Positions 32,601 through 60,100 of a DNA stretch of 64,000 nt are shown one piece after another. The notes beneath the pieces are model-generated. The model was given only the letters and a program-made list of their open reading frames with translations, had not been told where the DNA came from and did not search any database. Position numbers and translations under genes: made by a program. Source of the stretch: Dipteris shenzhenensis (taxonomy: Eukaryota); assembly GCA_047967505.1 (NCBI GenBank), contig CM106538.1. One strand, written 5' to 3'. The first letter of the stretch is position 1; each line of letters opens with the position of its first letter.

Positions 32601-35508
32601 CCACTATCATAAGTGGTGAACCATTCCCTATGGGGAGTAACATGGAATGAAGCACCAGAATCCAAAATCCAATCCTGGGAATATGCATCATCTGAAGTGG
32701 TAAGCAACTCTGCAGATAAACTAGACATGAAGAGAACATCATTGTCACTATCACGTGTGACTGCATTGATCTCCTCGATCTTCACTTTTCCTTTGTCCTC
32801 CCTTGGACTCTCTTCCTTTTGATTTGCACCCCAATTTGCATTCTTTTTCTTATCCTTTTGCTCTCTTTTTAGCTTGTAGCAATCCTTTTTCATATGGCCC
32901 TTCTTGCCACAGTGGTAACACTCAATGTTTCATGCCCTGGATTTGCTACGAGACTTCCCTCTTTCTTGGGACTTCCCCCTGAACTGTGATCTGCCCCTTT
33001 GCACATTTAAGGCTGCATCCTGCTTGTTGCCATCCATAGACTTCCGTCTAATCTCCTCGGCCAACAAGCTACCCACAACATCATCAAATTTCAGTACTCC
33101 ACCAGGTGCAGAGTTACTGACAGCTGTACGGAAGGTATCCCATGAGGATGGCAATGAACATAAGAGAAATATTGCCTTAGTCTCCGCATCAAAATTCATT
33201 TTCTGAGCCTGAAGCTGGCTGAAAATAATATTGAATTCATTCAAGTGAGAAGCAATGGAGACCCCTTCCTTCATCTGCAGCTCAAACAACCTCTTCATGA
33301 GGTAAACTTTATTAGAGGCAGTTTCCTTTTCATAAGTGGCACACAATTTCTTCCACAAATCTTCCGTAGTCTGCTCATTTACTACTGTGAAATAAACTGA
33401 CTCTGCAAGATGAAGTCTAATAGTAGACTTTGCTAATGCATCCAACTCATTCCAATCATCCTCAGACATATCCGCAGGCTTAGCTTCAATACCTGCCAAG
33501 GGTTTAATCTGCTTCTTTTGAATAAGCACATCCCTTATTTGTTCTTTCCACAAAGAAAAGTTTGTCCCATCAAACTTTTTAATGCTGAAAAACTCCTTTT
33601 CAGACATGGAAGAGGATGCCATGATGCAAATAAAGCAAAATCCCAAATGCTAGTGCCTGCAAGAGAGAATCACACCAAATACTAGGTGCACCCAAATGTG
33701 TATGCCACAATAGAGTGAAATATCACCAAAACTCAAAACTCAAAGCATCTGACTCATGTGCATATAATATGCATCCATATGAGCAAATCTGGCCCAAAAG
33801 AAAATGCCAATAAGTGCCAAATGACTCAAGCATAAACACTGTCCACTGGCATATGCATCAATAATGTCTCATCCAAGAGAGCATAGCACTATCAATGCGT
33901 CCTGCAATGTGTCAAAGCTGTCCCTCAGCATAAAATAGCATCCATGTGCAAAGCGTCCATAAAAATAGCATCCCACAAGGCAATTTGGGCCTATCAGCGC
34001 ATCCAACAAGGACCGCAATGCATCCAAATGGCCTATAAATCATCCACTGCAACCCAATGCATACCACGAATGAGCGCACATTGCTCAAAATGCAACCAGA
34101 GTGATCTGCATAAGGTATGCTCAAGAAATCATAGTCCCACGGTAATGAGCGCTACTGAAAATAGAACCTGAGATGCTTCAAAACATGGGCGCCATTGCAT
34201 AATCGGACTCAGCAAGAAAATCTGCAAATATCTCTCTTCTGCCAGAACTCCAAAATCCCAACCAATGAATGAGAAATGGGAGTCAACACTTATCCACTGC
34301 CATGTGGCATAAATCTAAGGTTTCAAAACCTTAGTATGAAAAATGCATAACAGAGAGACGAAATCGAATACACAGAGATTTATAACTCTGAAAATCCTCC
34401 ACCGAATCACGCAAGAACTGATAGGTAGGGGTTTTTGGGCGTCCGGAACGCAATGGGACAGACGGTTTTGGAAACCGTGGTCTCAATCACTGGGTCCAAC
34501 ACACGGACTGAAAAACGTTTTTGGAAACAGAGCTATCTGTAAACTCCACCGGAGTGCGAATGATGAGCAACATAGAAGTTTTAGGACCTCTTGAGTCCAC
34601 CGGAACTGACAGATCTGCAAATGGTTGCTCCAAACTTGAGTTCCAACACCCGGGCAAAAAACGCAGGAATTGACACAGTGACTCAGAAATCCAATGAAAT
34701 GATCCTAGATTCAGGAATGAAGGTGTTTCCAGGCTCCTGAAGTAATGTGGACACCAAAAGCAAGCAATAGTTGCCTCTACAAGTCAATACGGAGTCTCTG
34801 TCATCGAACGGAACAGGGAAAAGCTCAAAAAACGACTTTTTCTTTGAAAGCTCTTAACAGGCTCTCAAAACCACTTCGCAAAGCCAAAACTTTTCCAAAG
34901 GTTCCTCCAAGGTCTCTGCTCACTCGGATGCAAGTAAAGTCACTCACAAAGCTTCCCACAAAGCTTCTCCTTCCTCCCACAGAGCTGCTGAGCTTCAAGC
35001 ATTCACGAACGCTCAGTTAGATCACTTGGGCTCTGATACCAGTTGAGAGTGCTCTCAACGGAAGCAAGAATGGAAGAAGGAGAGAGAGAGACAGAGAGAC
35101 AGAGAGCCACACAAGTTTTGGTGGGTGCAGAACCACCCTAATCTTCTTTTTCATTCATTTATATATGTGTTTGAGTATTGTACATAACCGGGGTTAAGGC
35201 ACAGTGACCTTTAACCCCCACAAGTGATATTGAATCTCAATATGTTTTGTGCGAGCGTGGAACACAGGGTTCTTTGCAATCGCCATGCAACTCTGATTGT
35301 CACATGATAACTGCGTAGGCTTGCTCTGTAATGCACCCATTTTCCCTAAGATCCTCCTCAACCACACTGCCTCGCAAGAAGCAAAGCATGCTGATTTGTA
35401 CTCAACCTCGGTAGAAGAAATAGCAATTGTGGGTTGCTTCTTGTTGACCCATGACACAACTCCAGATCCAAGTGAGAAACAGTAACCTATCACTAATGTC
35501 CTGCTGTC

Positions 35509-38868: not shown

Positions 38869-41690
38869 TGTTGAGAGATATGGTGCCATGAGCACATGTA
38901 GAGCAAAGGTATGGGCAAAGGATAAGCTGCCACATGGCATGGAGGAGATATCCCACATGTGAGCAAGCAAAATGGATGTAAGTACCCTCACCTATAAAAG
39001 GGAGGTTCATTTGAAGTAATATCAATCAAGCACTTTGCACTATCTCAAGATTCTCTTTATGAGTCCAAGCTAATCTATCTTGGAACCTAATTGACTTGAG
39101 ATACATGTCATGAGCACTCTCTTCATCATGTTTCCACATAGGTTCCATCCACCTTAGAGTGCTCCATAGATCCTCAGGCACACATGTTTTGTCATGGTAT
39201 CAGAGCATAGGTTTAGCTCTCCTAGTTTAGCTCATTAGTAGTTCACTAGGATTGCTTCCATTCCTAGATTAGTTGTAGGCATGTTTTAGGAGCTCATGTT
39301 TTCTTCTAGGTTAGTTTCAGTTTTAGAGAGTTTTTTTCTTGAGTGATATTTGTGAGAGAAAATTCTGTCCATAGGCTTCGGCTCTTTTCGATTCTTCTTG
39401 TAAGAAATTCATGAGTGAGGTTCTTTGAAGGAGAGGATATGTATCTGTGAGATTGAAAGGAAGCTAACATCTTGAAATAGATCATGAGCTCAAGGAGACG
39501 AGATTGAGAGAAGGAAATGTCTTAGGATCAAGATAGAGAGAGAGATAGAATTCACGGAGAGTTTGACCGAAATGATTCAGTGTTGTTGATGAAGGAATCC
39601 ATGCAGTTTTCTACCGCAACGACGATTAATGGAGCTTGTCCATTGTAGCTAAGCATTTGGATTGCAGCACTTCAATGACCAGCTACGGCCTCCATAGCTC
39701 CCAGCGACCCTGAGTCACGAAGTACCACCTCTGCAGCCTAGCAGAGTGCCAAGGGTAGATGCGACTCTACTGCGCCCTCCAGCGAATGACAAGTCCTACG
39801 TGAAGGCCAGCCTTCAACAGCCTCTGATGCACCGAGGGCTCCAGCGCCAACACCGACAACAAGCCTCACAGGCCAGCAGCCAAAGCAGCGCATGTAGCTT
39901 CGAAATCTGCAACAAACATTGCCCGTGACCCGTCGAACCAGCTCATTCAGCAACCATCCTCTGCATCAACGTCCATCTTTGGATCGGCCAGCCTCTCGAG
40001 AGCCGACCTCTACCAGCAACGACTAGCTTCAACAAGAAGAGAGTGCCAAAACTTTTGGGTTGCCTTCTATGCTCTTTGTAGCTCTACTTAGTTCCTCAGC
40101 ATGAGCGCCAACGAACGGGACAACATCAACTGGCGCTGCTCCAACGACATCCAGCTCTAGACTAGTGCAACGCCCATGCTCCAAGGTGCCCACGCTAGAG
40201 CCTCCGGAAAGCCTTTCAACCGGCACACGAGGCGACTTGACACAAAAGGCAGCAACCTCCATCTCCAAACGTGGCGACTTCAGTGACAGAAGCAAACAAC
40301 AACAACGAACGGCTCCCTCCATCGACAACGCAGAAACTCCCTACAGCCAACCAAGCTCACGATAGTAACTCGGACGCTACGACTTTTTTAAAAGTCCTTT
40401 CCTTGGAGGTACGACAGCTTCAATCGTGCCCGACCACGACGGCCTCAACGGCAGCTTCAATCTCTATCCTTATCGACATCTTTGCACAGAGTCTATCTCT
40501 CTCTACACTCCCTCATCAACACGTGTTAAGATAGGACTTAACTGTGGTTAGATTACAAGATAACCATGGTTAGGTGTGGTTCAGTTAGTGGGCTTAGGTT
40601 CAGTTACTGGAACTACAGTAAAACCTTGGGTTAACTCATTTGGCTTAAAAGTTTGACACATGGCAGATAAGACCTGACTGTGGTAAGGTTAAGGTCACCC
40701 ACCAAGGCAGGGTTAAGGTTAGCTAAATGCCACCTAAGCATGCACAGTCAGTAGTGCCATCCAAGCACAGTCCCTTTGTAAGCACAGTATGGAATTCAGC
40801 ATGTGAATCCCTGTGCCACATCATCAAGACCCCCTCTTCTTCACAAAAGCTTCAACAAGCCATAACTTCCAATCCAGGAAGAATTTGGACATGCTCCAAA
40901 AAGGAAAAGTGATCGTCTTTTCAAGCTCTACGCGTCTGTCATGTTAGAATCATTGTATGCAATTAGACACTGCCAATATTGAAAGAATTCAATTGGTAAG
41001 ACCTTTGCAACCATTGGAAAAAGCAAAGCATAAATGCAAACATCGATGTAAAAAGCAAGCCAAAACCACAAGTGCATGAGATGACCATAGCAGGAAGCAT
41101 GGCATCCACACATAAAGCACCAAGGCACATGGAAGAACAAAGCATCATGCATCCAGCTACGTCAAGCGAAGAAGCAAACGCCATCGACATGAAGCATTGA
41201 AATGCAAAAACCTTGCCAACCTTGCCTATGTTTTGTAATCAAACCTGACCACCTGAGAGTAGCTATGAAAGCACCCAGGGGAGGTATTGACATGTAAAAG
41301 CCACACTTGACCACCTTAAGTAGCATGCATGCAGTAGCCAAAGGATTATGGCACCAAGGGGAGGTGTTGAGAGATATGGTGCCATGAGCACATGTAGAGC
41401 AAAGGTATGGGCAAAGGATAAGCTGCCACATGGCATGGAGGAGATATCCCACATGTGAGCAAGCAAAATGGATGTAAGTACCCTCACCTATAAAAGGGAG
41501 GTTCATTTGAAGTAATATCAATCAAGCACTTTGCACTATCTCAAGATTCTCTTTATGAGTCCAAGCTAATCTATCTTGGAACCTAATTGACTTGAGATAC
41601 ATGTCATGAGCACTCTCTTCATCATGTTTCCACATAGGTTCCATCCACCTTAGAGTGCTCCGTAGATCCTCAGGCACACATGTTTTGTCA
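38869..41690 (+). mobile_element. Non-coding LTR element (TRIM/LARD-like), element F
   Basis: 326-bp LTRs at 38869-39194 and 41365-41690 with 1 visible difference; TSD GATTT; PBS 39195-39206; PPT 41356-41364; no gag/pol motifs seen. Confidence 0.9.
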
Positions 41691-42059
41691 GATTTTACAT
41701 CCATCTAAAACACGGGCCATCTTCCCTGGGCTGCTAAAGCCAAAACACTGTGAATTGTGGTTAGTGGAGCTGTGGGAGCAAAAGTATCCTAATAATCAAA
41801 ACCATGTACCTGTGTGAATCCTTTCGCCATGAGCCGAGCCTTGTACTTATCCAACAAGCCGTCGGACTTGGTCTTGTACACCCACTTGGTGCCAATTACC
41901 TTGCATTTTGGTGGTCGATCCACAAGGTCCCAAGTGTTGTTCTTCATTATGGAGCCATTCTCTAACTGCATAGCCTCCATCCACCTATCAGTTCTGTCTT
42001 TTTCTTTTACTTAAGTGTGATCCTCTTTTTTTAATTACTTACTGTGCATTCTTATGTCT

Positions 42060-42431
42060 TACAGCATATCATCTACAACCACCTTCCCTATTTTGTCAAA
42101 AAGTATGGATGCCCAGCAATTTGGTCTACCCAAGGCATGGAGAAGTCTCACTACATGGCACGTAATGCATTTTTCAGACACACACAACACTATGGAGGGA
42201 GTCAGAAGGCAAATAGTCTGAAGGAAGTCTTCCAATGGTTTTACCGAGGCATACTATAGAGGCTGCATGCTAAAAGAAAAGTTGCTAGCTCCAAAATCAA
42301 GCTTGCTTTTCTTCTATCCCAAAAGCAAAGACGAAGACAAGCTCTAGACAATTCAATGGCAGCAGAGAGACATAGACAATGGAGCGAATCGAAGATATTT
42401 AGAAACCATAAATGGACAAGTAAACATGAAT
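42060..42431 (+). pseudogene. Last exon of a RAG1/Transib/Chapaev-like transposase
   Basis: HIIYNHLPYFVKKYGCPAIWSTQGMEKSH resembles RAG1 [29 protein letters not shown] (catalytic Glu region); preceded by acceptor TTACAG. Confidence 0.6.
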
Positions 42432-42757
42432 AGGACTCATTTGCAACTTATTGGTGTTATGTCCACATGTTTTCAAACTCAATCAATAGAAATTTTTTTT
42501 GTGGAACAAGTGACTCTTGGTGTTATGCATCAAAAGTATTTCTTTTGTGAAACATATGATCTAAACGTAATACAATTTGTTCACAATTTCAATATATTGT
42601 TTGTTTAATATTTAACGACACCACTCTATCTAAATGTACAAATCATTTGATCTTCAACTTATTGTTCATTTATACAAGATCATACCAGATATCAAAGACT
42701 TTGTACAAATCAGTTCAACTTTAATATAATGTTTGTGCTATATTTGATGACTAAATC

Positions 42758-44440
42758 CTATTTCTCCCAGGGCCTGCCGATCGAAACTCTCTTTTTTATC
42801 TTGATTGGAGTCTTTTTCTTCTTTATTGGCTTGATGTCGACTGTCTTTTTATCAATGCTTGCCTCTGTTGCTTGTCTACGAGGGGTATCCTTTTCTTCAG
42901 CTGTCTTCACCTGTTCCTCTTCTTGGATTGTATGGCCTGATGCAATCATGGGTGGCTCTCGAAACCTTATGAGCTTGTGTTTTCCATAGCCCTCCAGACA
43001 TTTGGGCTCCTTAACACCACATGCTAATGCATAAGAAGTGTAAGACAAAAAGTAAGAGGCCCTAGAGGCCTGCTTATTCACATAATCTCCAAATATATCT
43101 ATGGCAGACAACCTCTCTATCAAAATGATCTTTTCCTTTTGCCATGAAAGATCATGTCCACCTAAAGACCTGGACAAACATTTTAAGAAGTAAACAATGG
43201 CTTCTCCATTGTTGCTCAACTGCCTATGGTAAATCAAGATCTTAGCATTGCCTAGATCATGAATATAATGAGCTAGGCCTGACATTTTGTGAAACCCAAC
43301 CGGCCTGCTTCCACTTGATCTGAGGAATGTGTCATCCTCAATTTGTAGCTGCCACATATCAAAAGATTGGAGTGAGACAATACACAACCTACAAAAACAA
43401 AGTTAAGTAGAAGACAAAGTATTTGATTTGAAGTACCTTCTCATTTTCATTAGCAACAAGTAGTTCATCTTTCCAAAGATTTATTCCTCTCCCCTCTTGT
43501 CCAACCTCTTCTTTAGGCTTTTCTGTGTATAGTGCTGAGAGATTCATAGCTTCCTGTGTGAGCTAGAAGGCAGCTTCATCTGGCTCTTGGAACTTTTCAG
43601 CCTCTTTGAAACAAAATGTAAGGGCCTCTACAGGATCAAAAATTGTTTCCAAAGCCAATAGTGAATGGTCATCCTCTATGCCAACCTCCCTTGAAGCCTG
43701 GGAAATAAGGGAAATGGCATAGTCCTCCCTCAAATTGAACATACACTCTATATCATGGAGGAAAACATAATCTTTTCCACCAATCAAGACACCTGGAAGC
43801 ATGGGCACTGCATAGTTGCTGCTCTGGACATCAAAATCTTCAACTAGCTCTGCTCCCCTCAGAGTTTTTGTCCTCAGTTGTACAAGGTCAAGAGCAGCCA
43901 CTTGCAACCCCTCATCCTGAAGGTTGATATCTTCTTCTTGCTCTGCCATTTCTATGACCAAAGAAACATCCTCCTTTTCCTCTGCTTCAGATGTGTCTTC
44001 TTCTTCAATCTCCTGCCCTTGTTCATCCAAAGACTCCTGACTGAAGACAATGTACATAAGGAATGCCATGGTTTCCTCAAGCACTCTGCACTTTCTGGTG
44101 TGCAAGTTACAGTTGAATTTATATTGATCAGGCCAGTTGTCAAATCTTTTGTTCACATGGTACCTCAGCCTGTCAATGGAGACAATATGATTTATATGCA
44201 CAAAAACCTTTTCTCCTTTCATAATTCTTCCTGCCTCTGTCAGTTCTTTGAAGGTATCCCAATAGTCTGAAAGAAAATCTTTGTGATGCTCCAGTACAGA
44301 GCTCATTGTGAACTCCATGTTAAAAATACTATGGTATATATGGAAGTTACTCTGAGCCTTGCATTTGTGAAGAAACTCAAATAGGAGCAAATCTGGAGAC
44401 TTGCCCTCTTCTGGTTCCTTTTGTTTTGTGATGGAAGAAT
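42758..44440 (-). pseudogene. Two-exon gene of unknown function, putative transposon accessory gene
   Basis: 275-aa and 209-aa ORFs in tandem with a short candidate intron at about 43390-43435; acidic middle, basic C-terminus; no family recognised. Confidence 0.45.
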
Positions 44441-44750
44441 CAGCACTCTGCTCCAGTCTCTTCTTTTTGCTTGTTCAAAAACTTATATACTTTGAATTCT
44501 ATATGCTGACATATGCAATCAGTGAATGCATAGGATATCACCAGATAATTCCTTCATGAGCTCTCATGACTCACCTGGTGATTGCTGTGGTCTAATAATA
44601 GCAGCAAAAAAGTCCAGCTTCCTCTTGAAAGGTGGGGCCTGGGAGTCAACTGTTCCAAAGCAAAAACATCTCTCATCATCAAGGAAGAATTCCACAGGGC
44701 TAAAGATAGCAAAACAATGAGGTAGAAGTGAGAACCAAATCAGACACAGG

Positions 44751-46372
44751 AATTTGCAGCAAAACACGATGGGGGACCATTTGGAAAATCATTTGGACTC
44801 TCCTCGCATTTTGTTGCAAATTCTCCAGTTCTGTTCATGTGCATGTCAAATCAAACACTAGGTTCATCTCATTCATTCCTGGACAGTATGATCTCATATG
44901 CAAGAGAAATGCTGGAGTTGAGTGAAGCTTTTCATGAGGAATGTGTCAACAACAGGAATTTGCAGCAAAATGCGATATGGGCTATTTAGAGATGTATAAA
45001 CCACTCTCCTTGCATTTTGTTGCAAATTTCTAGGTTCTATTCATATCCATCTCCAATCAAATTCCTGGGTGATTTACCACATTCTTGGACAGTATCAATT
45101 GAAAATGTAACAAGAAGGGTGGAGTTGAGTGAAGACATTTGGACATCAAAAATCCAATGGATGGAAGAAATATATGTCAAAAAACATTGAAAACAATCTA
45201 GAATTCTGACCTTTTTTTTCCTTTTCCATGCTGTTGGAGTTGCACTGGTGAATCTCCTACTCTTTCACTAGCTTGAACTCTACACTCTAGGTAACCGGGA
45301 GATCTGGCAGTGGTAGTAGTCTTCAAACAGGTTGCAATCTAGATGGAGTGTGCTGGGTAGGAAAGGATCAAAGAGAAGGAAATGGAAGATGCGAGGGTTG
45401 TGGCAGGGATGAAAGATTGGGAGGCAGGGGAGGGAAGAGTGGTTGTGGAATTGATTATGAAATCATGAATGGCACAAGTTCCAAGGCATAAAGTGTACCT
45501 TTCACATGTGCCAAATTTCAAACTCCAAGAGATCTGGGTCCCATCCACACATGTGAAAAACAACTACATTCCACACGTGTGGGATTTAGAAGATGCCTTA
45601 TTTGTATTTGCACTTATTTGTGGTATCCTGTTTCAGACCTCTTGCCCTCCAGTCTCTACTCTCTTACCTCCCTACCTCCATACTCTGCAACATCAACATC
45701 CTGACTAGCAGCATAGGTTCATCTCCAGCACAAGGTACTCATCAGCAGCACAGCACATCCACAGATAGATTTCAGGTCAGTAACAATGGGTTCTTCCCTT
45801 AGTCTCTGCAATCTTCTTGCCTACCATAGAAACAATCCATCCTGCATGGAAATGCATAGACTTAGTCCATATTTTATTTAGTTGTCAAGACAGAGAAATC
45901 ACTGTAGGAATGTAGATCTTCAAGTGTGATATTTGCATGTGAGGGTAAAACTGTACTTATGGGTTCTTCCTTTAGTCTGTGCACACTTCTTGCCTTCCAT
46001 AGACTCAATCCATCCTGCATGGTTATGCAAACACCTTCAAATGACTGAAGGCATATTCCAGCATGCTGCCTCATGAATTTGCAGGAAAACGCGAGGAGAA
46101 GGCCTTAGGAGTTCCAAATAGTTGAAATCACGTTTTGTTGCAAATATTGAAATGTTGCTTCATCCACCCCTGTCATTCTGGTTTTGTGACTTCCATAGCT
46201 ATCCATGGCTGTACTCTTCTTGCATAAACTCCATTCATACTGTATTTAGTTGTAAAGACAGAGAAATCACTGTAGGAATGCACCAGCATGTCATTTCAGG
46301 AATTTGCAGGAAAACGCGATTTGGACCTGTTAGGAATTTCAAACTCCTCGTATCGCGTTTTATTGCAAATTT
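44751..46372. repeat. Four related hairpin elements AATTTGCAG(C/G)AAAA..CGA-N~30-TCGC..TTT(G/A)TTGCAAAT
   Basis: At 44751-44822, 44957-45028, 46076-46146 and 46301-46372. Confidence 0.8.
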
Positions 46373-46477
46373 TTCTATGTTGCTTCATCCACCCCTATGA
46401 TTGCCTTTTTTTTGTCAAAACATGTTCTCCATGTTTGTAATCTATTTCCAATCCTTTGTATGCAATTTTTCAGAGTG

Positions 46478-48556
46478 ATGGCCAAAACCAAGTCAACTGC
46501 AAGGAAATCTGGCAAAGGGCCAGGGCTTGCAGCAACAGCAGCTGGGGCAGGTACCAAGAAATTTAGTGTGCCTCCAAAGGGAAGAGCTGCACATGGCAGG
46601 AAGGGTAAGCCAATGAGCCTGCTCAAGCAAAAGGCCAAGAGATTGAATCATGGTGCAGGTGTGCTAAGGGAGATCAGGAAGCAATAGAAAGCTATAGGCT
46701 TTGCAAACCCCAAGGCACCTTTTCAAAGACTGGTGAGAGAAATATGTGATAGTTGGCACCTTGGGTTTAGGTGGAACAGAACTGCCATTCTTTCCTTACA
46801 GGAAATGGCAGAGGATTACTTGGAAAAATATTTTGAAGATGCAATGCTGGTAGCAGCCCATGCTCACAGGGTGACTTTGATGGCCAAAGACTTCAACACT
46901 TTGTCCAGAGTGAGATGGAGGTATGACAAGCTTGTTCATCCTGTGGAATGGCAGGACATAAAGATGAGAGACATATTGTTAATTCCACCTACAAGGAAGT
47001 TGAAGGTAGATGAGGTTAAGGTTGTTGAAGTAACCCACTCAAAGAACACCAGAGGGAAGGCTGCTTATGAGGAGTCACTGAAGCAGCAAATAAAAGAAAC
47101 AAAATCTGTTATAGATGTGGAGACTGGAAAGAGGGAGCTACAGATACATAGAAGGTTGCAGGAGCTGGGCCCTAATATAGTTGTCCATATTGAGGATGAA
47201 TTTTCAGTGAATGATTTTGACTTGACAAAACCATGCTTGGCAGCATTGGCTCATAAGAATGAGTATTGCTCAGATACTATCATTCTTGAAATGCTCTAGT
47301 AAGTGTCTATTATTTTACATTTTTTGCGAAACAATCCTCCTTGTACCTCCTTTATACCCTACCTTAATTATTTTTTGGTCCTATGCAGCATGATGAGAAG
47401 CTGGCTTCACACCTCTGTACAGCATATAGTCCATATTATTGATCCTGCCATTTCTTCTAAATTAAGAGATGCAAAGGAAACTCCCATTAGTATTTCCAGC
47501 TGGTTCAGAAACTACAATTTTGAAGTAATTGATGTTTTGCTACTTCCATACAATAACAGGTATGTGGGTGACTGCTTCTTTTAAGATTCTTCTTTAAGAT
47601 TGAGAACTCTTGTAGCCTTTAATTTCCTAATGCTTTTTTCCTTATGCAGTGACCACTGGAGTTTTGTTTCTATTGACATCCAGCAGAAGCAATGCTTTCT
47701 ATTCAACTCTCTTAAAAACACACACAGAGAGCTGAAATTGTAAGTTCTGTGTGTGCTTTTTGAACTTAAAACTTCATTATTTTGATATCATACTAACTAA
47801 ATTATACATATTGCAGTTGTATTCGAAGGCTTCTAGATGCATTGGATCACTGTCCTCCCAATGTCTCTCTTTTGGATTTAATAGAGCCAATAAATCTAGA
47901 GGTAAAAAGTCGTTCCCTCTACTGATGTCTATTTCATGCTATGTCTTTGAACTTATTCAATAATTTTGTTTTGTTCAGATGCTAACAGTTTCTAACATAT
48001 CTTTCCAACTGTACAGACACCACAACAAGATGATTCAAGTAGCTGCAGATGGAGAGTGCTGATCGGTGCAAAATATCTACTTTCAAGCTATTTTGAGAAA
48101 GAACAGCCAGACCTTGTAAGAAAAAATAATTTTCATTTAGCTTGAAGATAATTCATAATGATACAAAGTGTTCTAAATTATCATCTGCCATTGCAGATGA
48201 AAGAAGATAGCTTCAGCTCAAACTATGTATATAATTTTAGAGCTCATACAATTTGGAGGTTTTTGAGCTATGCCTCCCCCAAACTTATTGTACCAGCTAC
48301 TGTGGAGTTGGGTGAGAGCTCTAAAGTACAAGAAGGTGTCATACACCTTGATGCCACAGATGAAGCACCTAATTCTAAGGAGGAGAAGCCACAAGAGCAA
48401 TCACCTAGTGCTGAGGAGGAGAAGCCACAGGAGCAAGGACCTACTGCTGATGTTGTTGAGGAGAAGATGGAGCAGCAGCAAACAGATGCTCCTGGGGTAG
48501 TGGAGGAGACAATGGAGCAACACCAACATACTGTACAGGACAGGATGGAGCAGTAG
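46478..48556 (+). pseudogene. Histone H3-like / Ulp1 (C48 SUMO-protease) fusion, six exons, one premature TAG
   Basis: MAKTKSTARKS, VLREIRKQ*K, PFQRLVREI, LQEMAEDYL..FED..HAHRVTLMAKDF; then NEYCSDTII, LLLPYNNSDHWSFVSID..LFNSL, TPQQDDSSSC. Exons 46478-47298, 47389-47559, 47650-47739, 47817-47901, 48017-48114 and 48198-48556 splice in frame with GT-AG. Confidence 0.85.
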
Positions 48557-48779
48557 AAAAAAGATTCTCCAAAAAATGATGATAGGGAGATCTTGGACCA
48601 TGTAGAGTAGCCTCTGGATCAAGCTATACATAAATAGAAAATGGATGTCAGAAATATGTTCTACATGTTTAACTAAACAGTTTTGTACAAAATCTTACTT
48701 GATTGAATACAAAACCTTTGTTTATGGAGTCTGTGTTATCTCAATTTTTAAATTTTCAATGTCTTTGCATTTTATTGAG

Positions 48780-50161
48780 CTCTCTCTTCTTTTGAGCAAC
48801 TGCAAAAAAGAAATATGAATTAGAGCGGTAAAGTAAACTAATAGCAATGCTTAATGAGACTAGGATAAATCAGATGGTGTACCTTTTTGTTGTTGTAGAT
48901 AAATAAAAAGTCGTTTGAAATAGAACCTTCTATCTCAAACAGAATGTCATTGCGCAATTGAGCTACGGAGCAACATTCTCTTAATGAGATATTGACTAGC
49001 ACATCACCATTCTCAACAACATCAATATCAAGAAGTTTATTTTCTACACCAAAAGAATCTTCATCTTAATCCATTGGGACTAGTTTTGTCCCTAGCATTC
49101 GACTGCGCTTGTAATAAAAAGAGAAAATAAAATTTTGTGATGCAACCATGTACTTCAGTTGCATAGAAGGTTGGACAACCTCACAAAACACTGAACTACA
49201 TGTCTTCTTATCCCAACCTTTATCCAAAATTTGTGGCATGCATGCTGAACTTGTTGCTTTAACTGTGAACATTGTTTTTGAAACCTTCACTGGAAAGGTA
49301 TTAAACAAGTCCACAAAAACTATGAGAGGCATGCATAAAGAAATTTTTACTATCCTTGTGGCAATATTGGGCCTCAGAGCTTTCTGTACTTCTTTGAAAA
49401 GCTTGGCCCTATATGCCTCTGTATTACTAGAATGTGGGTGAGGCCAATCCACTGAATTCCATGCCAGAAGGTCTTGTTTTATTAACACACCATGTGTGTT
49501 AGCATTGTCCAGCAACTGATAAAAATGATCAGTAAAAAATATACCCGATTGAGCTAGCTCTATTGCACATCGACCTTGGTATTGTTGTTCTCCTATCGAT
49601 CCATGCAGAACATCTATAAATCCTAGAATATAATCGATGTTTTGCCATGTCTCATACGATGAAGGATATAAATCTGAAATAAAACAACACAAGAATGTCA
49701 ATAAGCAAAGAGAGAAAGCTTCATCTTAAAAATCCATACACCTCGTAAAGAAAAAAACCACAATAGAAAAATATACAATTAAGCCTGTGTTGCAGAAGAT
49801 CTTTTGGATAGTCTTGGAAGACAAGTTCTTTATGCATGTACATGTGCTAAATCAAAACTTCTTTCACGGATATCTTCCCTCTGGTGATTTTAAAATCTCG
49901 TACTCTTCCCTTCCATGATGCCAAGAAAATGTTTTTTGTCTGGGGTCTTTTTCTTTTGCTAGGATGCATGAGCACCCATGCTCCTTTCGAAACACTAAAC
50001 CTTTCCCAAGTTCCTTCCATTTTGACTGTACTTGAATTCTCTACCGATGAAATAGAAGAAGCAAGTCGATGGGGTAAGGATGTGTGGTATAATTCTGCCT
50101 TCATAGCATTATCATCCACAGAGCGTCTTCCACAAGAACGGCCATGGTTTTTATTCACCAT
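48780..50161 (-). pseudogene. Probable BAH-domain protein, spliced, with nonsense codons
   Basis: GAWVLMHP..WKGRVRDF..EVLI*HMYMHKEL..NYLYPSSYETWQNIDYILGFIDVL..FFTDHFY; intron at about 49674-49776. Confidence 0.5.
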
Positions 50162-50299
50162 GGAGATTTTCTGAATCTATAACAATAGCAAAGTAATGTA
50201 AATAAGATAACAAATTGAAGTTTCAAGAAAGAGAAAGTGGTTGGTTGAGAGCTTATTTTTCCAAACCATAAAAGGCCCCAAAATGAGCTCCCTTTTTTC

Positions 50300-51083
50300 C
50301 TAATGACCCCTACCTCTGCCTCTGCCTCTGTTTCTATCTAAAGTTGTGAATGCCTGATCATTGGAATGACCTTTGCATGCGTGAATGGCCTGAGTTTTGA
50401 GATCTTCACCAAAAGTAAAACTGACTAAAGTCCTTCCAGTGTCAAAATTTGCCGTTGAATGGCAATAATCTGGACTAGATTCTTGTATCCAACTCCTAGT
50501 TCATTCAAAATGACTTGAACCATTTTTGTGGGGTTCATAGTCTCTCCAACTACTGTGAGTTGATTATTGTAATCTTTGATCCTGAGTATGTAATCATGGC
50601 TGGTTTCACTGCTATTGCAAAAACTCTAGTTGATTTGGTTTCTCATTGTGAGAATCTTGGAAGTGTTCTTGGACTCGTAGAGAGCTACGAACATATCCCA
50701 TGCTTCTCTCGATGTCTTGACGGTGTTGAGATATCCTAGCATGACATCTTGCACATTCTGTTTGATTAGATGATATGCATACTTGTCTTTCTTGTCCCAT
50801 TCTTCATGTGCTTGGGCAATGGCAAGATCTGCTACAGATTCAAAAATTGTTTGTGTAGCTGGAGATCACACTGTAGATCCCACTGCTGGTGTTGTGACAA
50901 TAGGTGGAGTAGAGCTACTACTGGTTGGATCATCCACAATGGTCTAGGTGTAGATCCATCGACATACTCCCATTTGTCCTGAAGTACAAGAATGGTCTCC
51001 ATTTGGTATTTCCATGTGCTATAATTGGAATTGTCTAACTTAGCAGATGCCTCCAGATTGATGTTGCTAGTCATCGCAGACAT
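50300..51083 (-). pseudogene. Copia gag fragment
   Basis: KLDNSNYSTWKYQMETILVLQDKWEYVDGS; RGRGRG tail near 50305-50330. Confidence 0.75.
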
Positions 51084-52577
51084 GATACCAAGAAATGTAC
51101 TCAAAGTGTCTATGAAATCACTGTATGAATCAGCTGCAAAACACTGACTGTAGCAAGTGAAATCTGAGCTATCGGTGAAGGTAGAACTGTAATATATAAT
51201 CCAATCTAAATTGCAAGGCTTGTGGAAAATGATGCTGGAAATAGCCAAGAGGCTTACAAGGCTGAAATAAAGTGCACAATGTCATGAAATAGCAATAGGA
51301 TTTACAATGATGGCATGTGTGTGTGAAATCAAATAATTTGCTATCTACCCACTGATCAATCGGTCAATGCCTTTGAACACTATGAAGTCTGCTCACTAAA
51401 CTGATGAACATCAGGTTTTAGGTAATGTGATGATGTGAAACCATATGTGAGCATAGGGACTGACTCCAAGTAAGAACTAGTCAGGAATTTTGGGCATGGC
51501 TTAGATTGGCAACTTGGAGAAATTCAAATCATCTCCACTATGGCAATCTATTATACTTTGATCTAGATCTAGACCAATCATAGACCAAAGAAAAGAACAA
51601 ATAATTTCTTTTTCTTTGGTTCTTTTTATGTGCTGGGTCAGATGCATCGATGTAGAGACTATGTGTGTGTAGGAAGTGGATTTGTCGATAAGGCTCAAAA
51701 GTGAGCGATAATTGCACCACAATGTGCATGTGATATGATGAGCATGTAGAGCACAAAAAATCAAGCGATTTTCCTTTTTGGAATGCCCTCAAATTCTTCT
51801 TAGATCAAGAGATATGGCTTGATTTAGGTGGAGGGGCAAAAAAGGGTGCAAAGTGCTCAATGATGATGTGGCACTCAGGGGGTCACATGCAGTGACTTTT
51901 CTTGTGAAGGGGTGTGCCTCTGGGGCATTGTGTGATGAGGTGGCAAGAGGATTCACATGCAATGCACAATGTGCCTACAAGGGTTATGACATGTGGTAGC
52001 TGAGGTGGATGCTGATTGGGCACTGATGACATGTCACATGTGGATAAGGTTGCTGATGTGGCAACTGAGCTGTCTTGGATGACTTGTATGCCACATGTCA
52101 TTTGAGGTGGTAGATAGACCAACCTTAGGGTCAGAGGAACCTTACCATGGTTAAGTCCTATCCTCCACATGGCATCTTTGCTGAAACCTAGGAAGAATTC
52201 TTGCAGAGATGGTGACGTCCTTGCCTACGGCTGAAGATGGAGTTCACTATCTAAGAGCCCAAGTGAAATTGTTCAGCCCATCGTTGGTTGGAGCACAAGA
52301 GGCCCTGAAGTTGGGAGAGCTATGCAAGGGCCGTGTTTGTCATGGGTCGAGGTAGATGTAGAGTTCATTGAGCCTACTTGTATGGTTGCTATGTTGAGGC
52401 ATCGTTGGATCTGGGTAGACATTGGCAGCATAGTAGCAACTTACTGAGGCCTCGTTGGAGCACTGAGTGTGGTTGTGGGTGTGGCGTTATCATATGTTGA
52501 GGAGAAGCCCTCTGTGGGGCATGGCTTGCTAGGGTCGGTGGGGCAAAAAAGCTTGGATGTGTAGGTTGTTGAATAGG

Positions 52578-52582
<5 letters not shown>

Positions 52583-52618
<36 letters not shown>
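52583..52618. repeat. (TC)n microsatellite
   Basis: Pure TC run. Confidence 0.95.
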
Positions 52619-52622
<4 letters not shown>

Positions 52623-53112
52623 GGTATATGATAGGACTAGAGATTTCTCCCTCTCATGAGCTGCAAACTAAAATCTCTCTTCAAAACAAAGAAAGAATAA
52701 TCTCTTGCAAAAATGAATATATTTAGTTCTTTCAATGAAAATGAAGAACTCTCACTCTCTGTGAATCTTTCAAAGTGAATAGAGTAAAGTAGGAATGAAT
52801 AAAACTCTCTATCTCCCTTTTTGTCTAAAAAGAAGGATTCCTCTCACATGAATCCTCACAAGATGAACATAAATTTCTTCAAGATATCTCAAGAAGATGA
52901 ATGGAAATATCTCACAAACGCTCAAGAAAGTGATGACAGCTAAGGAGATCAAATTAAACATTGAAAGACATAGTGCAATATATTCATGAAAGGTAAGAGT
53001 TATTGAAATATATAGTACAATACATTCATGAAATATAAGAGTTATTCTCTAACACAAAAGGTGAAGTGGTTAGTACACTTCAAATTCCAAATCAAAGTAT
53101 ATAGCCTTAAAG

Positions 53113-53693
53113 TTAAATAAATTCATAAAATGTGAAAATTTTTACTCCAGGCGTAATGTCTTCATGAGAAACTATCTCAATAAAACCTACATGTCCATCG
53201 TCTCTCCAAGATGGACATGTAGGATTATAAACCCAGACTACATTCATTAGGCTATCATCATAGAGGAAGCTATTAATATACCCTGCTACATTTCCATTAA
53301 GAACATCACCCACAATGCCTCCACAATGTAAGTGTTTTGTTCCTCCTCTATTGCATAAGTATGCATTCGAGGATAATATAAACATAATTGTTTCCATACG
53401 TCATGGTCATATCTTGCTCCTATGTAAGGAAACAAAGAAGTTCCCTTGGAGATCTTACAGAGGCTGAAAAGAACCAAGCTGGCATCACTTAAAGGTGATT
53501 GTGAGACATTATACATTCTTCCATAATATTGAATAGGCTCGTTTATTGGAATTGTTAGTTTACCCTTCCAACCACCATTCTTTGAAGGATCAAAATATAT
53601 AATCCTTTGAGCCTCTAAACTTGGTGGACAGTTCAAATTACATGAAATTCTTTCCATTGTGTTCATTTCACACTCTACATTTTTATAGAGCAT
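53113..53693 (-). pseudogene. Second SET-domain gene, frameshifted, homologous to 10467-11028
   Basis: FDPSKNGGWKGKLTIPI, FPYIG, YPRMHTY, IVGDVLNGNVAGYINS, EDITPGVKIFTFY. Confidence 0.75.
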
Positions 53694-56074
53694 GTAATAA
53701 TTTCCCCAAGCCCACTATAACAACAAGAAATAAAGTAGTTTAGATATTTTTAATACTCCTATATCTTTAGTATGCATAAATCAGCTAACATAATATGAAA
53801 AGGCTTACTTTTTGGGTCTTACATTCTTCTTTCCAATCTTCGGTAGGACCATGTTTAATAAGATGTCTATTGATTCAATTTTGTGACTTTATAATATATC
53901 CATTGCACTTATTTCAAGGACATGCATGCCAATAAAACTTAGTGCACTCCATTTCTTTGTTGCACTTTTGTTGATAAAATTCAACCAAATTTCTTGGTCA
54001 GTCATCTCCTAAGATGTAAAATTATTTTGTGAACGATATCTCATGGCTATTTAAAAATAAATCATGATTGTAATTTGAAATGATAAATAATGAATACATA
54101 AGAAGTATAAAGAGATTAAGATTTCACTCACAAGATCCAACTCGAATAGATGATGACAGACCCATTGCCATTGTATTATGAGATGAACCTAGAACAAAAT
54201 ATAGATATCAGAGGAAATGAAAGAAATGAAAAACACTAAATATAGTACAAGTACATTCATTTTAAACAAAAAATATGAAATGCAATAACCTAGATTAGCA
54301 ACTAATTGGTTCTCCAGTAGAGCTTTAGTGAAAGTAGCCCCATGAGATGATCCTACAAAAATTAAAAATGCATCAAAGGCCAAATAGACAATAAAGATCA
54401 TAGTCCATGATTGGACTTGGACTACATGATCCTATAATAGATGAATCAATTATAGAAATTATATTTAAGACCTTACATACTTTTTCAGATTGAAAGAATT
54501 TATAAAATGATACAATTTCACTTATAATATGGACAAATGGCTACTCTTCTTACCTTTGAAAGAAGTTCGATGAGTTTGTGCTAGCATAGGGGGAGAATTG
54601 GCAGTAGCTAATGCTCCTACACCAACAGGAGCCACATGACATGCCTTCTCTTGAGAGCGCACGCCATAATTTCTTTTTGTTCATTTTGAACTATCCATTT
54701 TCTAAATCCATAAAGCCATTAGACACAACATATGCATAAATTAGCGCATATGAAGAATTTACATTAATAAACCTTCAAATTTACATCAACAAATGCATAC
54801 TATTAATCCTAATCCATAGCATGTTGAAACCATGTGCCAAGAATGCACCCTTATGTCCATAAATCTTAGCATTTCCAATGGTTTCATGATTACCCTTTTG
54901 ACGCCCAATGCTGTGGCCAAATAAAAGCATTTTAAAAAATGGTTTCTTTTTCCAAAATAAATCATTTCCTTTAATCCAAGGTGACCAAAAGTGAGTACCA
55001 CCATGAAAACAATCCAAACCATTTCAAAGTACAAAAACATTTCTCCATTTGTTACTAAATTATGCACAATATGCTCATCTTTTTCTTCTACAATTCTTTT
55101 CGAATCTAGGACGTCCCAAATAAGGTAGCATATTCATCAAAGTTGTGTATGCTATTTGGTGGAGCCATTAAATCCCACAATCATTCAATCAAGTGCATGC
55201 TCAAATCATTTCAAATGAGAAAAATTATAAATGGTATTATCATCTTTTCATCCAAATTTATCAATGCAATTTAAAGGCTACTCACTAGGGCCAAATATGA
55301 GTGGATGGAGTGGCATAAGTGCAAAGAATGCAAGTGCATAGAAAGATAATTTCAAAAGCATATAATAAGGGGTCATCACAAGATAATAGCATAACACGAG
55401 TGTAGAAATAAGAATCAAAACATAGCATAGCGTAGCAAGCATAGCATAACATAAGTGCAAAACATAAGTACATAGCATAAGCATACAAAGGATTCATACT
55501 GATATTGAGATCCTTTCTTAACTCATATTGATATGAGTCCATGCACATGTCAAACACATAGCACACATGGATGCTCTCCCATAGACCGTGCAATCAACCA
55601 ACAACATTCCTCATATATATTGAGTTAGATACAATTTTGATCTACATGATCATGAAGTTCATTATGGCAACATCAAGCTCGACACCATTTCCTAGCCATG
55701 CATTAATTAAACAATATAGATGAGCAAACTCCATATGTAGATATAGATCAATACTGTACTCAATTATAGGTCTAGGATAAACACACATCAACAATGAAAT
55801 CATAATTGTCCACGATTGTAAGTACATTAATCATGATGATGTGCATGTGGGAGGCACTATCATCAAAACTCTAGCATCCAGCTTTTGTGTATGGGTGGCA
55901 TGCAAGAGGAAACATTGGCATTAATAGAGAGAGTTCAAGAAAGCCATATGGTCTAAGTTTAAATCTCATATGGGTTGAGATAGACCAGAATCCTACTTTC
56001 TCAATGCCCATGGATGATGCATGGTGAAAAACAAGGAAATATTCATTCCAAGGCATGAAAATGACATTAGATGG

Positions 56075-56557
56075 CGGGTGATGATGATGGGCTTTGCTCT
56101 TATATAGCCACCAGTCGTAGTCAGTTAGACTCAATTGGGAGGCCAACCCAGTCCGCCCAAAATGATGGACTGGAGGTCAGTCCCAAAGTAGGCCATCGAC
56201 CACACAATAGAACCGTGGCACAGAATAGAGCAACTAACCTATGGTCACCATTTGGCCCAAAGTGTCTGGTATCATCTGGGGCTCCAAACAGGCCCCACAA
56301 GGCTGCCGCAAGAAATTCTCCATCTACCCTCAGTGCGGTCAGTCATGGGATGCCTTCCTGCACTTGCAGTAGCCTAGTTAGTAGTGTGCCAACTCTATCT
56401 GAAGCTGTCTAGCCATGAGGCCACACATGGCCCCATCTGGTGTCCAACTACCAGATAACCAAGCTACTCAAATGCCTTCTCCTCATATGGGGGGCTTACA
56501 AGTAGAGTTAGTTGGTTCCTGCGCAGTTACATGAGAGTGGAGGATTGATATCTAATA
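56075..56557 (-). repeat. Partial family D LTR (uninterrupted reference for the 9704/23318 junction)
   Basis: Matches 9535-9704 followed directly by 23322-23652. Confidence 0.85.
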
Positions 56558-57184
56558 GAACAAAGGCTATGGCTTTATTCATAATGTAGATGCTGACTCT
56601 CTGTAACTTGTGTTCTTTCACCAATTGAGCTTCATCCATTTTGATGACAAATATGAGTTTTCCATTGCAATCTGTATAACAAAAGAGAAAAATCGTTAGG
56701 ATAAACATGATATAGGAAATGAACTAGGTAAAGTGCAATGCTATAATGGATTTCCTCTTACCATCTTCTCTCATGCCATAGAATTTGACCATTGCTTGTT
56801 GCAATTTCTCAACATCTGAGTAGACATTGTTGAAAGCATTCATCTCAAAGATTTGCAAGCCAGATTTCTTTTTACTCTTCCAAGTCATTGTGCCCCTTAT
56901 GCAATGGTACCCTCCAAGCATTTCGTTCTTCCCATCACATCTTCCATGAAGTTATTGAAGAAGAACACAATAAAAACTTAGTCACAAACAATGTAGCACA
57001 AAAGAGTGTACTCTCATTGGAACATTTGATAACCAACCTTGTAGCTTGGACTCTCCTCTTTCTAGCACCACCAGTGGGTGCCAATGCATCCATGTTATGT
57101 AACTACCTTCTTTTCCTCTCCTTCAATCCCAAAGGTGTTTCTTTCATCTTTTGCACTCATTCTTCTGCCTTCTCTCATTCCTTC

Positions 57185-60100
57185 TCATTCAATAAGAATG
57201 GCGCACAGATTTTGGATCTTCAAGGGAAGGTCATTGGTAAAGGTACACAATGCAACAACATCTACGAACTCTCAGCTTTCAGGGCTCAAGCAGATGTGAG
57301 CAACACTAAGCTATGGCATGAGAGGTTTGGTCATCTAAACCTTAGTTCTTTAAAGGAGAAGCATAAAAGTGGAATGATTGCAGACCTACCAGAAATTATA
57401 GATCTGCCTGATGTATGTGAAGGTTGCATGATGGGGGCAAGTAGCATCGGCAGCCCTTTCCTAAAGGGGCCAATAGGGCAACGGCTCCTCAAGAGCTTGT
57501 TCACACGGACCTCTGTGAAAAGATGGAGACAAAATCCTTGGGTGGTTCCTACTACTTCATGATGCTGATCGATGACTATAGCAGAAGGATATGGATATAC
57601 TTCCTGAAGACTAAAGATGAGGCTTTTAGTAAGTTCAAAGAATGGCATGTAATGGTCAAGAAAGAAACAGGGAGGAAGGTGAAGAAGTTGAGATCAGACA
57701 GAGGTGGAGAGTTCACATCAAGTAAATTCGAAAGTTAGTACAAAAGTCACGGGATCAAGAGGCAGAAACCCCCACCACATACATCACAACAAAATGGAGT
57801 AGCAGAGTGCAAGATGCATGTCATCTATGAAATGGGCAAGAGTATGATAAAAGGGAAAGATTTGCTAAAGACTTTCTGGGCTAAAGCATGTAACACGGTA
57901 GTTTACATTTTGAATCGTAGCTACATGAAGGCTATGAACGAGATGACTCCACTGCAGGCCTTTTCTGGTAAGAAACCTTCAGCTGCACATTTCAGAGTTT
58001 TTGGATGTGAATGTTTTGTGCATGTCCCTGATGCTAACAGGACCAAATGGGAACCGAAGAGCCGAAAGTGTATTTTCTTGGGCTATAGTGAAGAGGCGAA
58101 GGGTTACCGTCTCTATAATCCTATTACCAAGAAGGTAATAGTAAGTTGCAATGTGGTCTTCTCAGAACAGCAGCATCAATTGGAGGAGGATGCTTCCTTC
58201 CCAAACAACCAAGACCATGATATCCATCCAGTAAAACCACCAACAGCAGACCAATCTCCCCCAATGGTGCTTGGGAGGATTCAAGATAAAGAAGAGGAAG
58301 AAGAGCCTACAGAACCACAATAGAAACGACCATTCCTGAAGTGGGTGGGTAAAGGAGGTGTTTGAAGGTAGAGAACCTCCAACCATTGAGTAGGAACTAT
58401 CCAAACACTACTGGTCCAAGAGTTTAGAGGAGCAAAGAAGTGCGCAGGAACACTTAGTCAACTACGCTTTGATGACAGAGGTGAACCGTGTTGAAGAACT
58501 CAAGTGTCTTGAAGAGGCATAGAGTGATGATAGGTGGATGGAGGCTATGCAGTCGGAGTATGGCTCCATAATGAAGAACAACACTTGGGACCTTGAGAAT
58601 CGACCACCAAAACATAAGGTAATCGGCACCAAGTGGGTGTACAAGACCAAGTACAAGTTTGACAGCATGTTGGATAAGTACAAGGCTCAGCTCATGGCAA
58701 AAGGATTCGTATAGGTACATGGTTTTGATTATCAGGATACTTTTGCTCCCACATCTCGACTAACCACAATTCGCAGTGTTTTGGCTTTAACAGCATAGGA
58801 AAGTTGGCTCGCATTTTAGATGGATGTAAAATCTGCCTTTCTGAATGGAGATCTCAAGGAGGAGGTATACATGGAACAACCACTAGGTTTTGAGATTTCC
58901 AATTCAAAAGGTAAAGTCTATAAACTAAAGAAGGCACTTTACAGGCTGAAACAGGCCCCATGAGCGTGGTACCAGCAGATTGATGCCTACTTTCTACAAA
59001 ATGGGTTCAGGAGGATGCAAATTTATATATGTATAGAGAAGGAGGCAGGTGTATGATCATGGTCCTTTATGTGGATGACCTTTTCTTAACAGGGAACCAT
59101 ATAGAAAACATCTTGCAGACAAAGCAGTTGCTAGGAAGAGAGTTTGAAATGACAGACCTCGGGCTGATGCATTTCTGTTTGGGAATTGAAGTTTGACAAG
59201 AGCCAAAACAGATCTTCATCTCACAACTAAAGTATGCTAGAGAGATATTGAAGGCATTTGGCATGGTTGAATGCAAGACAGTTGGTAGCCCTATGGAGGT
59301 TGACGTGAAGCTCTCAAACGAGGCTTCTTCACCGCTGGTGGATGAAGCGAAGTACAGAAGGCTTGTGGGTAGTTTGATTTACTTGTGCAACATACAGCTA
59401 GACATCAATTTTGTGACTAGTGTATAAAGCAGGTTTTCCAATAAGCCCTGGGAGAATCATTGGAGGGTAGGGATGCGAGCGCTGAAATACATCAAAGGCA
59501 CACTTGATTAGGGCAACACCTTCACCAGATTTTGTGACTCAGATTGGGCAAGAGATGTGGACAGCAGGAGATCAGTGATAGGTTAGTGTTTCTCACTTGG
59601 ATCTAGAGCTGTGTCATGGGTCAACAAGAAGCAACCTACAATTGCTCTTTCTTCTATCAAGGCTGAGTACAAATTAGCATGTTTTGCTTCTTGTGAGGCA
59701 GTGTGGTTGAGGAGGATTATAGGGGACATGTGCAGTGCAGAATAAGCCTACATAGCTATCATGTGATAATCAGAGTTGCATGGCAATTGCAAAGAACCCT
59801 GTGTTCCACGCTCGCACAAAACACATTGAGATTCAATATCACTTTGTACCCGAGCTCATCATGGATGGAGAGGTCGACTTGGTGTACTGTTCGACTACAG
59901 AGAATGCTACAGAAATCTTCACGAAGGCTCTTGGAAGAGACTTGCTGGAGAGGCATCTTCATCGACTTGGCATTGGGCTGAAAAAGTAAGTTCACTTGCA
60001 GGTGGGACATTGAGGGGGGTGTTAGATATCAATGCTCCACTCTCATGTAACTACGTGGGAACCAGCTTACTCTACTTGTAACCCCCCCATATGAGGAGAA

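Follow-up and report, generated by a model that had tools for sequence, protein, structure and literature searches.

A probable large multi-gene DNA transposon with a RAG1/Transib-kind transposase and an H3-like companion gene, decayed in the genome of Dipteris shenzhenensis

A stretch of 64,000 nt of DNA from Dipteris shenzhenensis (GenBank assembly GCA_047967505.1, contig CM106538.1), referred to below as the window, contains four coding units between positions 41991 and ~50200. This block is probably the ~8.2-kb 3' part of a single copy of a large cut-and-paste DNA transposon with several genes, one for a transposase of the RAG1/Transib kind and others that are conserved accessory genes. 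The interpretation draws on the fold of the transposase family and its conserved residues, the linkage of the genes, purifying selection acting on them, the repetition of the block in related organisms and the decay of the window copy.

The window apparently comes from a large plant genome rich in Copia elements, with several Copia polyproteins and fragments according to Pfam and with nested long terminal repeat (LTR) elements according to self-BLAST. An earlier note on this DNA had described here four genes on alternating strands, bounded by truncated Copia pieces and with no LTR between them. The four coding units were recovered in the present analysis. A Pfam scan, which took in all 144 open reading frames (ORFs) of at least 80 aa in the window, placed a reverse transcriptase domain to the left of the block and gag domains to its right, and self-BLAST found no long direct repeat inside 42000-50250, so the described borders and the described lack of an LTR both hold.

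Transposase exon and its relatives

The first gene of the block is solely the last exon of a transposase gene. The exon opens behind an acceptor (...cttacag) that ends at 42064, and its natural stop codon TAG is located at 42431-42433. Many gene models of related proteins end at, or read across, an intron exactly at this place, after the residues ...THYM. The exon contains putative zinc ligands (H-x4-H), the catalytic Glu (...QGMEKSH) and the C-terminal tail; this Glu is the sole residue of the catalytic triad left in the window copy. The motif noticed earlier around the catalytic Glu was confirmed and reads H-x4-H-x-P-x6-G-x4-W-x2-QG-x-E at 42065-42142. A TBLASTN search with full-length relatives as queries found no rest of the transposase gene beside the exon. 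The same program detected a separate small fragment of the family, bearing the first catalytic Asp motif, at some distance on the minus strand (Table 1). It is matched by P0109, P0113, P0121, P0122, P0125, P0126, P0127 and P0129 with E values from 1e-3 to 4.5e-12, is wedged between Copia pieces and looks unrelated to the copy at 42 kb.

A phmmer search with the exon against 1.84 billion representative proteins revealed 100 relatives at E ≤ 1e-3, including 44 at E ≤ 1e-10 and two at E ≤ 1e-30. Most of these are products of the same last exon with a length of 80-150 residues. P0109 (696 aa) is longer, and its residues 555-685 are 57% identical to the window exon. Word-index searches yielded P0109 and 22 further longer relatives, among them the intronless proteins P0121 and P0122 (~900 aa), which show 36% identity to P0109 over 96-97% of the queried region (residues 150-696). 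A profile search enlarged the family set to 60 sequences. As for the organisms in which the family occurs, named members were present in three of the 30 protein clusters looked up, and these named relatives belong to ferns.

Modelled fold and conserved residues

The structure of the family was modelled with AlphaFold2 (AF2) for the full-length relative P0122, not for the window exon itself, using an alignment of 102 rows. The model has a mean predicted local distance difference test score (pLDDT) of 80.4 and a predicted template modelling score (pTM) of 0.69. A Foldseek search against the PDB gave 49 matches at E ≤ 1e-3, and those listed all belong to RAG1 (mouse, zebrafish), BbRAGL (amphioxus) or HzTransib; the best E value was 1.4e-12, and the next fold, that of the P element transposase, followed at 7e-3. 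According to VIA-align, model residues 217-838 superimpose on RAG1 residues 459-1008 with a Z score of 20.4 (453 residues aligned, root-mean-square deviation 4.0). HzTransib (Z 19.2, 414 of 480 residues) and BbRAGL (Z 18.9) come close to this value, whereas the next folds are the P element transposase (Z 10.4), ISCth4 (9.3) and Hermes (7.7). The aligned span of ~450-470 residues covers the whole RAG1 core, and the model contains all parts of the RAG1-type core fold, namely the RNase H domain, the inserted helical zinc-binding region and the C-terminal domain.

The catalytic Asp-Asp-Glu (DDE) triad is conserved in family alignment A3: D404 is present in 34 of 34 sequences, D501 in 48 of 49 and E779 in 44 of 48. 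The putative zinc ligands are conserved to a similar extent (C521 in 50 of 51, C524 in 51 of 52, H755 in 42 of 42, H760 in 46 of 48). The Cys pair lies ~20 residues past the second Asp and the His-x4-His pair lies ahead of the Glu. These two pairs may bind zinc; the equivalent pairs are zinc ligands in RAG1, where their spacing to Asp and Glu appears to be the same. By its modelled fold and its catalytic and zinc-binding residues, the transposase is thus predicted to be of the RAG1/Transib kind, and it is the predicted structure that appears to settle the kind. The RAG1/Transib-like end proposed in the earlier note is in this way supported by the fold of a full-length relative.

Linkage, selection and repetition of the block

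A search of metagenome contigs for the transposase exon gave 23 loci. In five of them (L001, L002, L003, L004 and L011) the exon is succeeded by gene 2, which lies on the opposite strand just as it does in the window. An H3-like gene (gene 3 in the window) follows on the same strand in three loci (L010, L015 and L019, with Pfam Histone matches at 4e-31, 6e-26 and 7e-34, respectively), and gene 4 follows on the opposite strand in three more (L013, L018 and L020). In addition, protein P0067 of the fern Ceratopteris richardii has the transposase end joined to an H3 domain. The linkage spans lineages whose exons are 34-60% identical to that of the window. The treatment of the four genes as one element, which had been an inference, is therefore backed by their co-occurrence in 11 of 23 independent loci, by one fern protein and by the repetition of the block described below.

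In comparisons of related loci, the ratio of nonsynonymous to synonymous substitution rates (dN/dS) was 0.22-0.26 for the transposase. Two parts of gene 2 gave 0.11 and 0.20, and the H3-like gene, whose dS is near saturation, gave 0.20. The accessory genes are present as whole uninterrupted ORFs in L002, L018 and L019. Since purifying selection maintains the companion genes in lineages of the family that are far apart, they look accessory to the element rather than casually captured, and the term "cargo" that had been applied to them is misleading.

These data also bear on the view that the three other genes are captured fragments of host genes, that is, functionless transduplicated cargo as in Pack-type elements. 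Some facts agree with it: the window copies of companion genes carry stop codons, and Ulp1-like pieces are frequent in plant Mutator-like elements (MULEs) and CACTA elements. A hAT element with a transduplicated H3-like gene is also described in the available text of a study of Pyrenophora tritici-repentis (PMC3538342). We nevertheless consider capture unlikely, because the same genes follow the transposase across the divergent lineages just mentioned, the dN/dS values of the companions are no higher than that of the transposase, and their ORFs are whole in the three loci named above.

Contigs of three other, related organisms (X1, X2 and X5) were compared with 41500-57500. In X2 the summed word depth, a sum that does not equal a copy number, is 11,400-362,000 in every bin of 42034-50577 and 21,263 over the Copia reverse transcriptase piece; to the right of 50577 it falls to 292, then to 47 and then to nearly 0, and X5 has the same edges. 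In two other organisms, X2 and X5, the block is a strongly repeated unit with sharp edges at the borders given in the earlier note. Joints at which X2 contigs seemed to skip parts of the block have sides of 20-30 nt and share their end points, and they were treated as repeat artefacts. The share of the block's words was at most 0.18 in all sequencing runs. Four air metagenome runs each contain ~12% of the block's sampled words, a hint that the host may release pollen or spores into the wind.

Could the block be a chance neighbourhood of unrelated pseudogenes and repeat fragments between two Copia pieces? The want of terminal inverted repeats (TIRs) and target site duplications (TSDs), as well as the fact that both edges are rearrangement junctions, would agree with this. 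It is nonetheless extremely improbable in view of the co-occurrence in 11 of 23 independent loci, the fern protein and the high depth of the whole block, with sharp edges, in two other organisms.

Points against the interpretation and the CMC alternative

Several results tell against a RAG1/Transib-kind transposon with linked accessory genes, and some of them concern the transposase. The window exon matches no Pfam family. Two of 28 family members match the Pfam family RAG1 (PF12940), with E values of 0.0032 and 0.0038 and 16 bits against a cut-off of 25; these matches fall at profile positions 553-593, which hold the His pair and the Glu. On sequence, the profile comparison with RAG1 proposed in the earlier note thus comes close to failing. 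A comparison of family profiles A1 and A3 with PDB sequences gave no RAG1 or Transib chain at E ≤ 10, and its chance-level rows had E values of 0.046-9.3. The structure matches include no CACTA or Chapaev transposase, and therefore the fold may not separate Transib from its relatives in the CACTA/Mirage/Chapaev (CMC) group.

Other such results concern the element. In 12 of the 23 loci no accessory gene is present; these loci have at most ~820 nt downstream of the exon. Among the contigs examined outside the window, none was seen to carry all four genes together. The depth values, being sums, leave copy number aside. Finally, the check for a pair of TIRs starting with CAC or for a TSD, suggested in the earlier note, gave nothing in the window or in L002, L004 and L011, whose contigs perhaps fall short of both ends; near the right ends of these three contigs the search met just microsatellite or local palindromic repeats.

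In view of the above, the transposase might be a divergent CMC member and not a Transib proper, the RAG1 fold reflecting a deep kinship of CMC and Transib. The border between the groups is unsettled: Chapaev is placed under CMC in the scheme of Yuan and Wessler as restated in the available part of bioRxiv 10.1101/2021.09.26.461848, and inside the Transib superfamily by Kapitonov and Koonin in the accessible text of PMC4411706. The missing CMC structure among the fold matches and the very weak sequence link to RAG1 leave room for this alternative. On the other side, RAG1 is the most-matched of 34 Pfam families (E ≤ 1, 28 members), and CACTA/KDZ transposase families are absent from the 25 most-matched of these; the structural match, too, spans the whole RAG1 core. 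The spacing of the Cys and His pairs appears to equal that of RAG1. Taken together, a CMC assignment seems quite unlikely, and a transposase of the RAG1/Transib kind is retained below.

Layout of the block and its accessory genes

The coordinates of the block, its flanks and related features are given in Table 1.

Table 1. Features of the block and its surroundings in the window (positions count from the first letter of the 64,000-nt stretch)
Feature	Position	Strand	Basis
Left flank, start of reverse transcriptase of a 5'-truncated Copia	41789-42010	-	Pfam RVT_2, E 1.3e-13
Remaining part of the last transposase intron	41991-42064	+	Fit of X1 contig; acceptor at 42064
Last exon of the transposase gene	42065-42433	+	ORF and acceptor
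Gene 2	42758-44474 (ORFs 43563-44474, 42758-43402)	-	ORFs; homologues
Spacer between divergent genes 2 and 3	44500-46470		Internal repeats of ~206-225 nt
Gene 3, exon 1 (H3-like)	46478-47298	+	Pfam Histone
Gene 3, exons 2-6 (predicted)	47389-48556 (47389-47559, 47650-47739, 47817-47901, 48017-48115, 48197-48556)	+	GT-AG sites read by eye
Gene 4	48838-50160 (ORFs 49847-50176, 49066-49725, 48838-49065)	-	ORFs; homologues
Right break zone	50165-50315		Ends of X1 and X2 contigs
Right flank, Copia gag fragments	50626-50865, 50832-51281	-	Pfam Retrotran_gag_2, E 7e-9; Retrotran_gag_3, E 2.6e-8
Separate small fragment of the same transposase family, first catalytic Asp motif	56520-57153	-	TBLASTN

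Gene 2 is convergent with the transposase gene and contains three conserved segments. Its homologues occupy the same place and orientation in the five loci listed above, and in L002 the gene is a single ORF of 627 aa. Neither the window ORFs nor the homologues match any Pfam family, Kelch included. The AF2 model, based on an alignment of 11 rows, is poor (pLDDT 44.1) and mostly helical, and VIA-align gave no Z of 5 or higher for it among 48,161 chains. Judging by its place, orientation and sequence, gene 2 is probably a conserved accessory gene. Past the start of gene 2, a palindromic motif of 16-37 nt recurs several times in both orientations in L011 (4937-5151) and L004 (5009-5257), near the right ends of these contigs; the element might use such motifs as subterminal binding sites.

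The spacer between genes 2 and 3 contains two short tandem-like repeats, at 44740-45134 and 46071-46396: according to self-BLAST, 44740-44927 recurs at 44946-45134, and 45994-46177 recurs at 46219-46402.

Gene 3 extends from an ATG at 46478 to a stop codon at 48556. The H3 named in the earlier note is clearly present in exon 1, where Pfam Histone (PF00125) matches with E 3e-20 over profile positions 50-117 of 122. The exon encodes an H3-like tail, the histone fold and a linker; an ARKS motif like that of H3 is preserved in the tail. Exons 2-6, as predicted, encode an Ulp1-like segment and an acidic repeat tail. From an RNA run (X23), 43 reads could be aligned; most of them are less than 90% alike, and no splice joints were found among them.

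As for the Ulp1 part of the earlier description, it received weak support. A single exon of 29 residues (47651-47737) matches Peptidase_C48 (PF02902) with E 0.0011 and 19.3 bits against a cut-off of 20.7, and the three other putative exons showed no match. The catalytic residues of Ulp1/C48 proteases are His, Asp, Gln and Cys. By eye, the His, Gln and Cys can be located in the segment, and the Asp reads Asn in the window copy. In L010, L015 and L019 the H3-like gene stops behind the histone fold, and the extension therefore seems to belong to the lineage of the window.

Gene 4 has an ATG near 50160 and a putative intron at 49726-49846. The BAH domain that the earlier note assigned to this gene was not recovered: in scans at E up to 1, 0.1 and 10, no Pfam match appeared in the window ORFs of gene 4 or in the homologues from L013, L018 and L020. 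The best Atlas score was 0.75 and pointed to an unrelated viral family. The BAH-like pattern seen by eye in gene 4 is kept as a lead. The most distant homologue, at 1373-2650 (-) of L020 (E 5e-10 to that of L018), begins by eye with something like a BAH/Tudor-type barrel and has no Pfam match. On the strength of its homologues, gene 4 can be regarded as a putative conserved accessory gene.

State of the window copy

Three of the four genes of the block carry in-frame stop codons, which had not been noted earlier: at 42257-42259 (TAG) in the transposase exon, at 46685-46687 (TAG) in gene 3 and at 49066-49068 on the minus strand in gene 4. The first of these is private to the window copy, because position 42257 is C (codon CAG) in all contigs of the three other organisms that cover it (one of X1, 20 of X2 and five of X5). 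Compared with the X2 contigs, the window has A/T where the others have G/C at 195 places and the reverse at 132; this excess fits decay by deamination.

Both ends of the block are broken. On the left, Copia homology ends at 41990, and 41689-41990 matches 58835-58528 with 88.6% identity. An X1 contig of 1590 nt (record 1) aligns with 41991-42846, and its further 735 nt to the left are unlike the window. On the right, X2 contigs have loose ends at 50164 and 50166, another X1 contig (record 6) fits up to 50240 and then continues for 140 nt unlike the window, and a contig of a Copia family begins to fit at 50315. Since neither junction is an LTR end, the junctions are products of rearrangement or deletion and not of simple insertions. 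We agree with the earlier note that no TIR or TSD is visible in the window, which is explained by the absence of both ends. Since its two ends and the greater part of the transposase gene are gone and three genes contain stop codons, the window copy is dead and cannot move.

Several collinear segments of 40530-40931 and 51746-52174 form inverted repeats with 73-86% complementarity; they lie ~11 kb apart, bracket the whole region and are possibly pieces of oppositely oriented LTRs.

Other elements in the window

A different large transposase gene is located at 19574-22605 (+). Its ORF at 21103-21963 matches the Pfam family DUF7869 (E 3.3e-42), shows a pattern of D..DN, ~40 residues and then D/E, and is preceded by an ORF of 550 aa without a Pfam match. 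The nearest Atlas clusters contain DUF7869 proteins from arthropods, molluscs and rotifers, and in the open literature no paper mentioning the name DUF7869 was found. Upstream are ORFs with SET-like (E 2e-4) and NIF phosphatase-like (E 2.4e-8) similarity at 10470-10883 (-) and 11279-12589 (-). This region is presumably the one that the earlier note called the first cargo-rich element. The exon at 42 kb was considered as the missing end of this transposase, split off by nested Copia insertions; this was rejected, because a complete D..D..D/E core is present within 21103-21963 and no similarity links the exon to that protein.

Very young nested Copia elements occupy 23834-35223. The segments 23834-24013 and 35044-35223 are identical over 180 nt (100%), 24144-24450 matches 29332-29639 at 98.7%, and the polyprotein ORFs comprise an intact one of 1467 aa at 24971-29371 (+) and one of 1103 aa at 29621-32929 (-). 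Inside the broken Copia reverse transcriptase lies a direct repeat of 326 nt (38869-39194 and 41365-41690, 99.7% identical, 2496 nt apart), which resembles the two LTRs of a small non-autonomous element. According to self-BLAST, the regions 15796-17237 and 18609-19508 are strongly self-similar in both orientations and consist of satellite-like short tandem units.

Possible mechanism and comparison with known systems

By analogy with Transib and RAG1, an intact element would be excised through DDE-catalysed nicking and hairpin formation and would reinsert with short target duplications. The accessory proteins may act on chromatin on behalf of the element, either in targeting or in escape from silencing by means of an H3 variant that the element supplies. 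A broader picture can be put forward tentatively, as a possibility that we hold to be rather doubtful: in plants, at least in ferns, there would be an old lineage of RAG1-fold (Transib-like) transposons organised as small communities of genes, in which the transposase has long travelled with its own H3 variant and two conserved proteins, one of them encoded convergently as RAG2 is to RAG1. The chromatin component supplied by the element would mark, target or shield its copies, would carry a SUMO-protease module in the lineage of the window and would let very high copy numbers arise in some plant genomes.

The textbook example of how a transposase became a recombinase of the immune system is that of RAG1 and Transib. 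The present family shares the fold of the catalytic core with Transib (HzTransib), RAG1 and BbRAGL/ProtoRAG (Z 19-20 over 414-478 residues), and has in common with them the DDE triad and two residue pairs, Cys behind the second Asp and His ahead of the Glu. In RAGL transposons, as presented in the available text of PMC7204232, RAG1L and RAG2L are convergent, like the transposase gene and gene 2 here. In contrast to RAG2, gene 2 shows no sign of a Kelch propeller, having no Pfam match and a poor, mostly helical model. The family further differs from Transib and RAG1 in sequence, with similarity at or below the detection limit, in that its named relatives belong to ferns, and in the presence of introns in the gene; the element differs in being large (more than 8 kb without most of the transposase gene) and in carrying three accessory genes.

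Transib is a small superfamily, for which 35 transposases were recovered in a survey according to the accessible part of bioRxiv 10.1101/2021.09.26.461848. No description of a plant Transib/RAG1-like element of such design was found in the open-access literature so far as its texts were available, Repbase and closed journals lying outside this scope. The block adds a structurally clear family of RAG1-fold transposases in plant genomes, abundant in some of them, and widens the known range and architecture of RAG1/Transib-kind elements. The current Pfam RAG1 model does not recognise the family, which would therefore stay unclassified when the repeats of large plant genomes are annotated.

Chapaev and other CMC transposases are DDE enzymes that also have a His pair before the catalytic Glu, as in the present family, and CACTA elements are large, multi-gene and abundant in plants. 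The family is set apart from them by the lack of any CACTA/KDZ family among the 25 most-matched Pfam families of its 28 searched members. Ulp1-like (C48) segments occur in plant MULEs (KI-MULEs) and in CACTA elements; in contrast to these, the Ulp1-like segment of the block, a weak match, is fused downstream of the H3-like gene, and its catalytic Asp reads Asn.

The hAT element of Pyrenophora tritici-repentis has an H3-like gene and an ORF of unknown function between its ends. According to the available text of its description (PMC3538342), it differs from the element considered here in the transposase superfamily, in its fungal host and in the recent transduplication with near-identical copies. 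Unlike in that element, the link to H3 spans lineages whose transposase exons are ~35% identical. Such a stable link to an H3 variant under purifying selection offers a concrete, testable example of how a transposon may supply a nucleosome component of its own.

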